DNA of 64,000 nt, from positions 37,118 to 101,117 of the forward strand of contig JBIKLZ010000002.1 of the NCBI GenBank assembly GCA_044359535.1, read 5' to 3'. Under the pieces are notes generated by a model that worked only from the letters and a program-made list of their open reading frames with translations, was not told the origin of the DNA and did not search any database. This document shows, one piece after another, positions 8,125 to 12,679 of the stretch. A program made the translations under genes and the position numbers. The stretch's first letter is position 1. Each line of letters starts with the position of its first letter. Source of the DNA: Chlamydiia bacterium (GTDB lineage Bacteria > Chlamydiota > Chlamydiia > Chlamydiales > 2-12-FULL-49-11).

Positions 8125-9873
8125 ATGATTAATTTTAGAAATGACCATTATCCATCTAGGTATGGATATCTTAAAGGCCAACCTCAAGTTCCCCCCCTTG
8201 ATGAACTTACCCAAAAGCTATATTTTATTTCAAAGGGTCAAAAAGGACAAACAGCAAGTGCTGTTGAAGCAATAGCTGTAAACATTCTTAGACATCTAAA
8301 TCCAACAATTTTACAACTCAGCCGTGTATTTAATTCTTTAGCGGTTATAAAAAAAGATAAAGGTTATCAAAATCAAGCACTTATCCAATGGGGTCTTTCT
8401 TCCTTAGAAAAAAGAGGACTTCAAAATGTAACCGATGGAGGTAATTGTTTCCAAGCTTTAGCAAAATTAGGAGAAATAAAGGATGGGATGGAAGAAAGGT
8501 TTGTAGCTTTTTTTCAACACAATCTAGACAAGGCAGATGAAAAGGGTTTAAGTTATATCGCAAACGGACTCATACATTTAGGATCTGAACATAAGAATGA
8601 GGGGTTAATAAGAAAAATTGATGAAATAGTACAAAAAATCTATTTACGTATGGACCCTTCAAGGAAAGTTTTATTTTTAGCGCTATTTTCAAAGTCACCA
8701 TTGTTAGGAAGATTAGAGTCTCCTTTACTCCTTATAAAAAGTTTGAAGGACAAAGTAGAGAATCTAGAGATAAGAAGTATTGAAATGTTAATTTTTGCTC
8801 TTCTAAAGATGGATCAAAAACAGGGAAAGCTTAATTCAATCATGAATAGAATCCTAAAGTATGCAATGAACAATCGTTCACCTAGCGTGTATGAAAAAAG
8901 ATTTGTCTTTTTAGAGTTGGCGTTATTTTATTCAATTGGTGGTCTTGCAAAACAATATATTGAAAAGATTATAAGAGATTATCTTGCTAATAGCAAGAGT
9001 ATGCCATTAGAAGATACTATTACTTTGACTCGAAAAATCGGCCTACTTGATACTCAAGAGGATGTAATTATAGAAAGGCTTGTTTCAGTCACCCTTGATA
9101 ATATCGATGCATTTGAACCTGATTCTTTTTTAAAACAATATATGAACCTTTCTAGGGTTGGGATTTGTAATAAAGAACTTTTTAAAAAAGTCTCTAATCA
9201 GGAGTGTTTAAAAGCGTTTAAAAAATTAACCATGAATGAAAAAAGTGCTATTTTTTGGGAAATGGTCAAAAGTGTACCTAAAAAAAGATACCGCACATTG
9301 CTTCTTCCTTTTTTTAAGGCATTGGATCTTGAACAATGTTCTAATAGTTCGAGTAAAAATTGTATGGTGTTATCCTATCACACGTTAGAAGCTGTCTATA
9401 AGATTGATTTCCTACCTAAGGTAAAAGAGCAGATCGCTATATTTGAGAGAGAACTGATTCAATTACAAAAAAATGAAGTGCAAGCGAATAAAGCTCATCA
9501 GGACATTTCACAAACGCTAATAAAGATGGAAATAGAACATGAAAATGAAGCCTTTGTTTTAGGATTTTTTGTCGATATTTTAATTAAAGAACCAAAAATC
9601 ATCATAGAGGTCGATGGAAAGTCTCATGATATGTATAGAAGAAGGTTATCTGATAAGGTAAAAAATGAAGTTTTAAGAGCAAATGGGTACCTTTTGCTCC
9701 GTCTTTCAGTGGATGCATTTTCAGACTTACCTGAGGATGAATTAAAGAGTATGATCAGAATAAAATTGAACGACTTGCTAAAAAGTGCAGAGGAAAAAGG
9801 GGCAACAGGATCTGCTCAAAAAAGAAAAATCTCTAATTATGAAAAGGGTATGAAAAGAAAAAGAAGTGGATGA
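8125..9873 (+). CDS. Helical-repeat protein with a C-terminal RAP/DUF559-like (PD-(D/E)xK, Vsr-like) domain and a basic bipartite tail
   Basis: 582 aa. C-terminus: AFVLGFFVDILIKEPKIIIEVDGKSHDMYRRRLSDKVKNEVLRANGYLLLRLSVDAF. Tail: KRKISNYEKGMKRKR. The N-terminal ~450 aa are Leu-rich helical repeats. Confidence 0.6.
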   Translation: MINFRNDHYPSRYGYLKGQPQVPPLDELTQKLYFISKGQKGQTASAVEAIAVNILRHLNPTILQLSRVFNSLAVIKKDKGYQNQALIQWGLSSLEKRGLQNVTDGGNCFQALAKLGEIKDGMEERFVAFFQHNLDKADEKGLSYIANGLIHLGSEHKNEGLIRKIDEIVQKIYLRMDPSRKVLFLALFSKSPLLGRLESPLLLIKSLKDKVENLEIRSIEMLIFALLKMDQKQGKLNSIMNRILKYAMNNRSPSVYEKRFVFLELALFYSIGGLAKQYIEKIIRDYLANSKSMPLEDTITLTRKIGLLDTQEDVIIERLVSVTLDNIDAFEPDSFLKQYMNLSRVGICNKELFKKVSNQECLKAFKKLTMNEKSAIFWEMVKSVPKKRYRTLLLPFFKALDLEQCSNSSSKNCMVLSYHTLEAVYKIDFLPKVKEQIAIFERELIQLQKNEVQANKAHQDISQTLIKMEIEHENEAFVLGFFVDILIKEPKIIIEVDGKSHDMYRRRLSDKVKNEVLRANGYLLLRLSVDAFSDLPEDELKSMIRIKLNDLLKSAEEKGATGSAQKRKISNYEKGMKRKRSG

Positions 9874-10714
9874 TATTGATGGTAAAGTGTGAGAAAATTG
9901 CACTTTCAACCGATCCTGAAAAGTGAAATATCGTTCCATAAAGAATTGAACCTATAAAGCAGGCGGCTAAGAAGGGGATATTTAGACTAAAAAAGAGTTG
10001 AGTAGATGTAAAAAGAAGAGAGACAACTAAAATAGCTAGAATGGGGGCTGCTTTATTTGATAGATTCTTTGTGATCTCATTTTGTAAAAAACCTCTATAA
10101 AATACCTCTTCTGGAATGACAACAAAAAAAAGATGTATGACAAGCCAATAAAGGGTTATAGAAGGAAATTTTACATCTAGTTCCACTAAATGACTAAATT
10201 TTGAAAAACCAAGGAGGATAAATGCGCTAAAAGCTATCCAGGGGATGCAGATAAGGAGGGTATGTTTCCACTGCTCTTTGGTTTTTAGAACCTGAATGTA
10301 TAAACCAAGGATCAAAATAGCAAGAGAGGCTCTATCAAAATTAAGATAGATATTCATTGGAACAGAGGATGAGCCAAAAGTGATTTCTTTAAACAGCAAA
10401 AGATTATGAAAACCACCAATCATATGGGTCATCAATCCTACCCCAATAATAGCAATTGTCATTGAAGAAAAAAGATGGACAAACCTTTTTAAATTAAACT
10501 TTAAAAAAACAAGGGCAATGAGAAGAAGGGTAATAGGGAAAAGGGATGGATAGGTGACTATCCCTCCGTAGTATCCAAAGACGTAGCTTACTATGTATAA
10601 AGGGATGAAAAGGGCGTACTTAGGAACTACCCAGCAGCTTACTAGTGTGCATAAAAGAAAGAAGTATGAGGCAAAAGCAAGGGGGTTAGAAAAGAGTATA
10701 GATAGTGTGCTCAT
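9833..10714 (-). CDS. CPBP-family (CAAX/Abi-type) intramembrane metalloprotease
   Basis: 293 aa, polytopic. EEVFYRGFL (EExxxR motif) and SHFTINIIHF (His motif). Confidence 0.8.
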   Translation of the reverse strand: MSTLSILFSNPLAFASYFFLLCTLVSCWVVPKYALFIPLYIVSYVFGYYGGIVTYPSLFPITLLLIALVFLKFNLKRFVHLFSSMTIAIIGVGLMTHMIGGFHNLLLFKEITFGSSSVPMNIYLNFDRASLAILILGLYIQVLKTKEQWKHTLLICIPWIAFSAFILLGFSKFSHLVELDVKFPSITLYWLVIHLFFVVIPEEVFYRGFLQNEITKNLSNKAAPILAILVVSLLFTSTQLFFSLNIPFLAACFIGSILYGTIFHFSGSVESAIFSHFTINIIHFFFFSYPFHN

Positions 10715-11696: not shown

Positions 11697-12679
11697 TTTC
11701 TTTTTTCCAAAAGACTTTCATTCACAACTTTAGAAACACTTTCAATGTAGTGTTCTAAACGGAAAAGTGCGCTTGCAGGAGATCTATCAAACGCTTCTAT
11801 TGCTTTAATGTATTCCATCCATCTTTCTTCACTCATTGTGTCAATATAGGTATGAAGCTCTTCAATTGAATTAAAACTTCTAGCATCTATAAAGGTCTCT
11901 TTTGGGATGTAATCTGTGATTTTTGATGACCCGTAATAAATAGGGACACACCGATTTTGCAAACAGTGAAGGATTTTTTCAGAAATATAGTGGAAATCAT
12001 TATCCCAATTTTCGTAACAATAACAGAATTTATGGTCTCTTAAAATAGCGTGTTTGTTATCACAGCGCCCCTTATAGATAGAAAGTTTGCATTTTTCCCA
12101 CCCTCTACTTCCGTACAAGTTCAATTTTTCTGGAAAATTAGAAGTGTAAAACTCAGCAATGCGCCTTCTTTCAGTGTAAAGTTCTTTTGGATCTTTAAAC
12201 ACATCGGCAAGATACCCACTTATAAGACAGGCAAATGAACGGTCATTGAAAGGTTTATATTCGGGATATACCCCTTGATAATGGGGAAAAAAGCCTTTAA
12301 AAAATTTTTTACCATCATAGAGGTCGTGATTCCATGTAAATACTTTATAATAGGAAGCTAGGTAGGAAGGGTTTGAAAATCTTTTTATTACAGGGCGAGG
12401 TTCAGTTACAAAAAGGATTGTTTTTTGTTTAATTTTTGCCGAAAAATTAATATCTAAAATGGTAAGTAATAGATCGTAGGTGTCTAAGGTTTTGTTAGAT
12501 GAGGGGTCAAAATAGACCATTTCTGCTTGATGACCCTGTTCTTGAAATCGTTTGATCAGTTCATTTGGGTGTTCAAAAGCAGTATTAAAAGGGGCCTGTT
12601 TTAAGCAAATTAAGCCGATTTTTCCAGAAAATAGAGATGAAAGGGGCAATAGGCAAATGAGTAAAAATTTAAATTTCAT
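11693..12679 (-). CDS. GT10-family alpha-1,3-fucosyltransferase-like protein, copy 1
   Basis: HKFCYCYENWDNDFHYISEKILHCLQNRCVPIYYGSSKITDYIPKETFIDARSF. Paralog of copy 2, with an ATGA stop/start overlap. N-terminal MKFKFLLICLLPLSSLFSG. Confidence 0.8.
   Translation of the reverse strand: MKFKFLLICLLPLSSLFSGKIGLICLKQAPFNTAFEHPNELIKRFQEQGHQAEMVYFDPSSNKTLDTYDLLLTILDINFSAKIKQKTILFVTEPRPVIKRFSNPSYLASYYKVFTWNHDLYDGKKFFKGFFPHYQGVYPEYKPFNDRSFACLISGYLADVFKDPKELYTERRRIAEFYTSNFPEKLNLYGSRGWEKCKLSIYKGRCDNKHAILRDHKFCYCYENWDNDFHYISEKILHCLQNRCVPIYYGSSKITDYIPKETFIDARSFNSIEELHTYIDTMSEERWMEYIKAIEAFDRSPASALFRLEHYIESVSKVVNESLLEKRK

Follow-up and report, generated by a model that had tools for sequence, protein, structure and literature searches.

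A tandem pair of leader-bearing GT10 fucosyltransferase-like genes in an uncultured chlamydia and their possible action outside the cytoplasm

Glycosyltransferases (GTs) of the GT-A and GT-B folds require nucleotide sugars, which bacteria hold in the cytoplasm. Where, then, do two bacterial fucosyltransferase-like proteins act whose N-termini resemble signal peptides? The question is raised by a three-gene unit in contig JBIKLZ010000002.1 of assembly GCA_044359535.1, from which we analyzed a stretch of 64,000 nt (the window) and inspected a further 10 kb on each side, about 84 kb around the locus in all. The closest named relatives of this DNA are Chlamydiia metagenome-assembled genomes, and its source is an uncultured environmental chlamydia; the label of the proteins in the source databases is 'hypothetical protein'. 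The genes and leaders concerned are the following.

12679..11693, minus strand: GT10-A, 328 aa, GT10-family (alpha-1,3/4-fucosyltransferase-like) protein, the A-type paralog
11696..10737, minus strand: GT10-B, 319 aa, GT10-family glycosyltransferase, the B-type paralog
10714..9833, minus strand: CPBP, a CPBP/Rce1-like polytopic membrane protein of 293 aa (PF02517)
12623..12679, minus strand: leader of GT10-A, codons 1-19, MKFK-FLLICLLPLSSLFSG, then KIGLI (beta-strand 1)
11649..11696, minus strand: leader of GT10-B, codons 1-16, MK-YILYLFSSLSLFGA, then NVGVLGW (beta-strand 1, residues 17-21)

The leader is real and unusual, and it belongs to a wider and apparently undescribed pattern in intracellular bacteria. 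A search of the available literature library on chlamydial and Dependentiae GT10 enzymes, GDP-fucose and signal-peptide-bearing GTs returned nothing relevant. Judged by their sequence, the window leaders resemble Sec signal peptides or short signal anchors placed directly before the catalytic fold. Action of the GT10 pair outside the cytoplasm is the reading that we favour, with a confidence that stays somewhat short of even.

What are the enzymes themselves? A preliminary description of the locus, made from the sequence alone, had presented them as ATGA-coupled tandem GT10 paralogs followed by a CPBP gene 22 nt downstream in the same orientation, with the strand left unstated. This layout stands: an ATGA overlap at 11693-11696 joins GT10-A to GT10-B (translational coupling), CPBP starts 22 nt past the GT10-B stop (gap 10715-10736), and all three genes lie on the minus strand. 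The motifs quoted in that description are present and the N-termini are exact. The family assignment has also withstood the hidden Markov model check asked for there, both proteins scoring above the Pfam gathering score (23.9 for PF00852; 22.4 was used for PF02517). PF00852 Glyco_transf_10 matched GT10-A with 46.8 bits (E 3.4e-12) and GT10-B with 50.5 bits (E 2.6e-13), and it is carried by all 74 homologs found. GT10-A contains TEP (92-94), ELYTER (166-171), KFCYCYEN (217) and ENWDNDFHYISEK (from residue 223); the motifs paired across the two proteins are KFCYCYENW with KFNICYENW, YISEK, and CVPIY(Y/L)GSSKITD. Identity between GT10-A and GT10-B is 37-39%. In a neighbour-joining tree each clusters with its own orthologs from other genomes, so the two are old paralogs; A-type orthologs are present in L003, L005 and L006 (related loci are cited by number throughout). 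The close relatives are prokaryotic or metagenomic only.

The AlphaFold2 model of GT10-B has a GT-B fold, with a mean local confidence (pLDDT) of 94.8 and a predicted template-modelling score (pTM) of 0.90. Foldseek placed the H. pylori alpha-1,3-fucosyltransferase at the top of its matches (2nzx/2nzw/2nzy, E 2e-11 to 2e-9, template-modelling score 0.52-0.59) and also matched mango FUT13 and Arabidopsis FUT11. With a profile built from 71 homologs, all solved GT10s are matched: 2nzw (E 9e-23), human FUT9 (E 6e-19, profile positions 37-294), mango FUT13 and Arabidopsis FUT11. Five residues are invariant across the 71 sequences, in GT10-B numbering E82, R161, Y221, E224 and K225, and aligning the profile with FUT9 brings 'fEpp' opposite 'LESP' and 'YISEK' opposite 'YITEK'. 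The catalytic base is FUT9 Glu137 (Glu95 of the H. pylori enzyme), and Arg202 and Lys256 of FUT9 bind the diphosphate (PMC12717137, PMC6785251). By this alignment, the catalytic Glu and the diphosphate-binding Arg and Lys are retained in both GT10s. The donor-binding motif of eukaryotic clade-2 FUTs is E-N-X5-Y-X-T-E-K-X3-(N/R) (PMC12717137), whereas the window pair has E-N-X6-Y-I-S-E-K-X3-(C/S): E, N, Y, E and K are kept, the spacer has one residue more, Thr is replaced by Ser, and the final residue is another. The X6 and Ser variants are shared by bacterial homologs, among them ones beside gmd and fcl, the genes of GDP-mannose 4,6-dehydratase and GDP-fucose synthase, which GT10 homologs in other phyla adjoin. 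The window pair are inverting GT-B enzymes, most likely alpha-fucosyltransferases using GDP-fucose. The GT10 identity itself is ordinary.

The N-terminus of these proteins is not. The GT10-A leader carries a charge of +2 on its N-side and 15 uncharged hydrophobic residues between K4 and K20; in GT10-B, MK is followed by uncharged hydrophobic YILYLFSSLSLF. Both have the positive n-region and the uncharged h-region (about 7-15 residues) expected of a Sec-type signal peptide for signal peptidase I. In the GT10-B model the 16-residue hydrophobic leader lies outside the fold, residues 1-10 forming a detached helix of pLDDT 57, and the 19-residue leader of GT10-A aligns to it; beta-strand 1 starts at residue 17 in GT10-B and at about residue 21 in GT10-A. 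In n-region charge and hydrophobicity the leaders match porins, SctR and other exported proteins of the window, whereas its cytoplasmic enzymes have no such segment. The exported controls from the same genome were three tandem Legionella_OMP-type porin paralogs (350, 385 and 335 aa; 24458-27769, minus strand) with clear signal peptides.

Could the leaders be artefacts of start-codon choice? Codon 1 of GT10-B is the sole in-frame ATG, GTG or TTG within the first 40 codons, which rules this out. In GT10-A an alternative TTG exists at codon 11, but an AAGGA Shine-Dalgarno sequence lies 7 nt upstream of the ATG and makes an artefact unlikely. The chlamydial orthologs (38-69% identity) all show M-K/KK, 12-15 hydrophobic residues and SLF(S/G)A directly before strand 1, while more distant GT10 homologs begin at strand 1; across the orthologs the kind of segment is conserved and its sequence drifts. 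The preliminary description was right that the pair has an N-terminal hydrophobic leader which H. pylori-type enzymes do not have. The eukaryotic type-II topology that it proposed did not hold, since the uncharged stretch is only about 12-15 residues long, less than a transmembrane helix needs, and beta-strand 1 follows the leader within 1-3 residues, so that a stem region is absent.

Cleavage could fall at L-F-G|A or F-G-A|N in GT10-B, and in GT10-A at L-F-S|G or F-S-G|K. We rejected a lipoprotein signal: there is no lipobox, and the non-conserved Cys of GT10-A (LLIC) is preceded by Ile at -1. The GT10 leaders contain no twin-arginine motif. The strong hydrophobicity of the segment makes a type III secretion signal unlikely.

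How widely is such a leader distributed? One genome was taken per species, giving 80 GT10 loci, and leaders were counted after start-codon refinement. Among Chlamydiota GT10s 40 have a leader and 5 do not; in Dependentiae the numbers are 3 (a fourth is borderline) and 2. In other named phyla (Campylobacterota, Bacillota, Bacteroidota, candidate phyla radiation bacteria and Spirochaetes) all 14 GT10s are without it, a difference from Chlamydiota with Fisher exact p = 9e-10. GT10 leaders are confined to two obligate intracellular phyla, Chlamydiota and Dependentiae, and a few relatives. Over 58 leaders the uncharged stretch has a median of 16-17 residues, and 48 of them have a net positive N-side. 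In the wider family an acidic residue follows the hydrophobic stretch in 23 of 47 cases, and many leaders have clear AXA-type ends. In an Anoxychlamydiales subgroup the stretches reach 20-22 residues; judging by this length, these leaders could be true signal anchors.

The tag is not limited to GT10. Gmd and Fcl encoded beside leader-bearing GT10s are tagged as well, in L038 (Dependentiae; 6063-9693), L076 (1305-3530) and L010 (11412-12629). The Pfam domain starts only at residue 52 in Gmd of L038, at residue 35 in Gmd of L076 and at residue 38 in Fcl of L076. Of the 120 best relatives retrieved with the L038 Gmd, roughly half have lengths of 372-411 aa, where 361-366 aa is usual, and bear textbook signal peptides, for example MKKMLIVFLSLTLLISLHA|ATQKKALIVG. 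Among these 120, the named signal-peptide-bearing relatives are Babeliales or Dependentiae, and the leaderless ones are unrelated free-living taxa. Over-extension of reading frames in AT-rich DNA is an unlikely cause, because dozens of independently called relatives have signal-peptide-like N-terminal extensions of 20-50 residues. The GT4, GT25 and RXYLT1-like genes neighbouring the tagged gmd/fcl loci are tagged likewise. The Fcl of L038 is additionally fused to a DUF1796 domain.

Two further proteins of the window, encoded by convergent genes, carry comparable leaders.

53071..53889, plus strand: DUF6492 protein, leader MKYILLFLFSCSLFSQS then IDVILPV; PF20102 31 bits against a threshold of 22.9
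53897..54991, minus strand: 364-aa protein, similar leader MIKFFLFPLLLFSIPKA

The leader of the DUF6492 protein is nearly identical to that of GT10-B. In its AlphaFold2 model (pLDDT 92.9) residues 1-17 lie outside the fold, and Foldseek matched Stealth-type CpsY, GlcNAc-1-phosphotransferase (GNPTAB) and GT6 enzymes, which shows a nucleotide-sugar-transferase fold; a PDB sequence search with this protein gave no match, so that the fold search alone was informative. The leader occurs in 58 of its 150 best homologs, and the rest start at the IDVVIP strand. The 364-aa protein gave no Pfam, NCBIfam or PDB sequence match. Its N-terminal hydrophobic index matches that of the exported controls, and its C-terminal motif HIPS..ENLAQG..FIPS was read as GT-B-like by eye only.

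How would an exported GT10 work? In the reading that we favour, the leader would carry the catalytic domain to the outer side of the inner membrane while the N-terminus stays inside. Fucosylation would then be periplasmic, or occur at the bacterial surface or within the vacuole lumen; the acceptors would be envelope glycans of the bacterium or glycans of the host, and the nucleotide sugar would be supplied from the host side. Co-transcription of CPBP would reflect insertion of the cassette into the transcription unit of that gene, not a dedicated partnership. The suggestion of the preliminary description that the enzymes are delivered to a host compartment and use host GDP-fucose is, in this light, a legitimate and plausible hypothesis. 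A broader version can be put forward tentatively, as possible rather than probable: Chlamydiota and Dependentiae might export through Sec a whole nucleotide-sugar glycosylation toolkit (GT10, Stealth/GT6-like GT-A, CAP59-like, GT4 and GT25 enzymes, and in Dependentiae also GDP-mannose 4,6-dehydratase and GDP-fucose synthase). Fed by host nucleotide sugars, such a toolkit would act outside the bacterial cytoplasm (periplasm, bacterial surface, vacuole lumen or host) and decorate envelope or host glycans; the window pair would be its chlamydial fucosylation arm.

The GT10-GT10-CPBP unit stands head-to-head with a divergent group of sugar-nucleotide genes, taken here as genomic context only.

14094-14576, plus strand: rmlC
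14577-15440, plus strand: rmlD
15437-16393, plus strand: rmlB
16390-17112, plus strand: kdsB

The assignments come from Pfam and NCBIfam (TIGR01181, 371.6 bits against 365.1; TIGR01214, 233.1 against 224.05; NF003952, 234 against 193). With 4-nt overlaps at rmlD/rmlB and rmlB/kdsB, the four genes apparently form a single operon, and the GT10 locus is an envelope-glycan neighbourhood. An ordinary role in envelope-glycan synthesis would suit this position. The leader would then be an uncleaved N-terminal tether at the cytoplasmic face of the inner membrane, and the enzymes would fucosylate a lipid-linked intermediate of lipopolysaccharide (LPS) or lipooligosaccharide (LOS) with bacterial GDP-fucose made by genes elsewhere; in Dependentiae the tagged Gmd and Fcl would join the GT10 in a membrane-bound complex. 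We regard such a tether as a strong rival, somewhat less probable than action outside the cytoplasm.

Several observations weigh against export. A kdsB/rml neighbourhood is what one expects for LPS assembly at the cytoplasmic face, and a GT copy number that varies at a fixed genomic position recalls O-antigen and LOS loci. Operons that join gmd to GT10 occur in L038, L076 and L049, and some leader-bearing GT10s share an operon with bacterial gmd (in L038 gmd stops 1 nt before the GT10 start), an arrangement most simply explained by donor synthesis and donor use in one compartment. By established biochemistry the donor and NADPH are found only in the cytoplasm; to our knowledge neither a nucleotide sugar nor NADPH for Fcl is present in the bacterial periplasm, so that export must be combined with a further secretion step or with access to host metabolites. 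Two features make a cleavable signal peptide a poorer fit to the window clade than to the wider family: the hydrophobic stretch is followed by a conserved Lys in 8 of 11 leaders, and beta-strand 1 begins only 1-3 residues beyond the leader without a linker. Cysteine enrichment, considered as a possible mark of an oxidising compartment, does not set leader-bearing homologs apart from leaderless ones (2.29% vs 1.97%, Mann-Whitney p = 0.06).

The tether meets difficulties of its own. The N-side is positive and most stretches, at 14-17 residues, are too short for a membrane span, with a charge pattern that is wrong for a cytoplasmic domain. The leaderless homologs of free-living bacteria do without a tether. 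Gmd and Fcl, soluble enzymes of the short-chain dehydrogenase/reductase type, have no known need for an anchor, and their extensions have the look of cleavable signal peptides: an AXA-type end, then a linker. The comparative data, namely the clade-restricted leader and the tagged Gmd and Fcl of Dependentiae, favour export.

Where would GDP-fucose come from? The preliminary description had noted that gmd and fcl are absent from the window. This is correct, the sole related short-chain dehydrogenases there being RmlB and RmlD, and the absence extends over the whole of the roughly 84 kb inspected. It recurs among the relatives, a point against the tether: gmd or fcl lies within 10 kb of the GT10 in none of 41 Chlamydiota loci, whereas among 20 loci of Dependentiae and other phyla 8 have one so placed (p = 4e-5). 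An EamA/DMT-superfamily transporter is encoded at 61746-62741 (minus strand), with no specific family assignable. This superfamily includes nucleotide-sugar transporters, and a bearing of the gene on donor supply is speculative. Just outside the window (L097, 1-1704, and the contig beyond the window end) we found a 571-aa protein with a faint match to UDPGP (UDP-sugar pyrophosphorylase), as well as a weak match to a PagL-like lipid A deacylase; the two may bear on envelope glycan chemistry.

Is the donor GDP-fucose at all? The adjacent rmlCDB genes invite the thought that the pair might transfer another 6-deoxy-L-hexose, L-rhamnose from dTDP-rhamnose. They are the sole sugar-nucleotide synthesis genes nearby, no other GT adjoins them, the same adjacency recurs in L003, L006, L008 and L009, and the donor motif departs from the eukaryotic consensus in its X6 spacer, its Ser for Thr and its final Ser/Cys (PMC12717137). 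The X6 and Ser variants are, however, shared with homologs beside gmd/fcl. A specific link between rml and GT10 is not supported, as the two do not co-vary across loci: S4CHLAM20 has three GT10s without rml at the locus, while L086, L090 and L093 have rml without GT10. We found no rmlA in the roughly 84 kb inspected or in any related locus. We know of no GT10 member that uses a dTDP-sugar, and consider rhamnosyl transfer very improbable. No obvious rhamnosyltransferase was seen near rmlC-rmlD-rmlB-kdsB.

The third gene of the unit, CPBP, was the part of the locus for which the preliminary description had no explanation. PF02517 Rce1-like matches it with 50.3 bits (E 2.9e-13), and it has the motifs EEVFYR (202-207; motif 1, EExxxR) and HFTIN (276-280; motif 3, HxxxN), of which E202, E203, R207, H276 and N280 are invariant in the ortholog alignment. 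One position departs from the family.

9998..10000, minus strand: CPBP codon CAA, Gln239, at the motif-2 His position (equivalent of Rce1 His173)

Gln is found here in the window protein and in the members of its 90% cluster from other assemblies, which makes it a trait of the lineage and not a sequencing error; every other ortholog examined has His. In Rce1 the motif-2 His pairs with Glu as the catalytic dyad (PMC12067869). The substitution suggests that the window CPBP may be weakened or non-catalytic.

It is useful to follow this gene across the related genomes. In five related lineages (L001/L005, L003, L006, L007 and L008) one to three GT10 genes are directly followed by CPBP, which forms a compact chlamydial ortholog group of uniform size. 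More distant genomes keep the CPBP ortholog between the kdsB/rml genes and mcsA-mcsB-ispD-tdk while their GT content differs, and the rmlCDB-kdsB operon is conserved beside it even where GT10 is absent. Two arrangements without an adjoining GT10 deserve mention.

L086, L088, L092 and L093: no GT adjoins the CPBP ortholog, whose partner is a divergent Cu-oxidase_4 gene
L090 (8001-12902) and L091 (4318-9219): the CPBP ortholog, then four tandem leader-bearing paralogs downstream with 4-nt overlaps

Against PF11735 CAP59_mtransfer (the Cryptococcus CAP59 mannosyltransferase family), two of the L090 paralogs pass the threshold, the third falls just below it and the fourth has no match. A tandem pair of leader-bearing GT10s is also present in the same metagenome-assembled genome, on another contig (L040). 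Because position is kept while GT content differs, CPBP and rmlC-rmlD-rmlB-kdsB are residents and the GT genes a variable cassette; by this synteny, the GT10 cassette, with 0 to 3 copies, is the variable part of an envelope-glycan locus. The CPBP association reported earlier is real as a same-direction neighbourhood, but much of its mystery disappears, being largely conserved synteny in which CPBP is present with or without GTs.

Might CPBP still be a dedicated partner that cleaves or handles the leaders of the co-transcribed GTs within the membrane? Such a role would be compatible with either topology, and the shedding of Golgi glycosyltransferases by SPPL3 offers an analogy. Co-transcription of CPBP with tandem tagged GTs from two families that are unrelated (GT10 upstream of it in the window clade, CAP59-like downstream of it in L090/L091) makes a modest case for a functional link, and the best NCBIfam similarities of CPBP are to myxosortase-type sorting proteases. 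The scores of these models are all far under their cut-offs (the best is Mrt_core, 48 bits against 100), and the GT10s show by eye no C-terminal hydrophobic sorting domain (…LLEKRK, …HPLQK). The orthologs without adjacent GTs and the His-to-Gln change of the window protein weaken the link further. We consider a dedicated partnership improbable.

The remaining features of the locus concern its boundaries and neighbours.

12680..12867, between GT10-A and a 387-aa open reading frame (ORF): divergent AT-rich intergenic region, probable promoter region of the GT10-GT10-CPBP unit

Read on the minus strand, this region gives its best sigma-70-like match at 12810..12781 (11/12). Match counts in the promoter and terminator scan of the region were not above those of shuffled controls, and the operon boundaries therefore rest on spacing only. 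The 387-aa ORF (12868-14031, plus strand) lies between GT10-A and rmlC and has only a weak Methyltransf_32 match (E 0.003). The syntenic locus L003 does not have it, rmlC there adjoining the promoter region of the GT10 genes directly, and the ORF appears to be a lineage-specific insertion. At the other end, a 582-aa protein (8125-9873, plus strand) with a C-terminal DUF559 / MTES_1575 endonuclease-like domain converges on CPBP, the two genes overlapping by 41 nt at the CPBP 3′ end; in L001 and L003 the syntenic counterparts are shorter and without a Pfam match. The chlamydial source is supported by other window genes, namely those for McsA/McsB, the type III secretion components sctJ/R/T, the Legionella_OMP-type porins, UPF0137, SUF proteins and glycogen phosphorylase.

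If the proteins do leave the cytoplasm, then intracellular bacteria would run glycosylation on host-supplied substrates. This would bear on how chlamydiae acquire surface glycans, on mimicry or editing of host glycans, and on which metabolites are available in the periplasm or vacuole. If the tag is only a membrane tether, the locus would be an ordinary variable LPS-glycan cassette.

How does the locus compare with known systems? The nearest by structure is H. pylori FutA/FucT (2NZW/2NZX/2NZY, 5ZOI), which belongs to the same Pfam family, has the GT-B fold and is the best structural match. It shares KFxxC(F/Y)EN, the Y-x-(T/S)-E-K donor motif and the PIY(W/L)G segment, and the motif parallel to FutA drawn in the preliminary description is a sound one. 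The H. pylori enzyme differs in having no N-terminal leader; it attaches to the membrane by C-terminal heptad repeats and amphipathic helices. Sequence similarity to the window pair is limited to about 80-110 residues of the C-terminal domain, and the E-N-X-Y spacer of the window pair is one residue longer. With human FUT9 (8D0O) the profile alignment spans nearly the whole catalytic domain, including the ESP catalytic-base motif. Golgi FUTs resemble the window pair in their N-terminal hydrophobic targeting segment, and hence in a predicted non-cytoplasmic catalytic domain, but the window GT10s lack the cytoplasmic tail, the 20-residue transmembrane span and the stem, and they are bacterial and encoded in an operon.

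The CPBP protein resembles the Rce1 glutamic intramembrane proteases in its PF02517 score above gathering, its EExxxR and HxxxN motifs and its polytopic form, and differs from them by the Gln in place of the catalytic-dyad His. From the myxosortases MrtX, MrtP and MrtC it is set apart by model scores far below the cut-offs and by neighbours without C-terminal sorting signals.

Exported GTs that depend on nucleotide sugars are rare exceptions, the gonococcal Lst being an example. This LOS alpha-2,3-sialyltransferase decorates LOS using host-derived CMP-N-acetylneuraminic acid (CMP-NANA) (PMC4324315, citing Shell et al. 2002; PMC4668040) and serves as our working analogy for host-donor use by the GT10 pair. 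It belongs to another GT family and transfers another sugar, and its localisation and donor source are experimentally supported, whereas the chlamydial GT10s are known from sequence. A closer precedent comes from the same phylum. In C. trachomatis, GlgA and GlgB make glycogen in the inclusion lumen with host UDP-glucose imported by SLC35D2, and chlamydial substrates of Sec/type II secretion (CPAF, HtrA) reach the inclusion lumen and the host cytosol (PMC6717882). GlgA differs from the GT10 pair as a reported type III secretion substrate with no Sec leader and no homology to GT10, and resembles the favoured reading as a chlamydial glycosyltransferase that acts outside the bacterium on a host nucleotide sugar.

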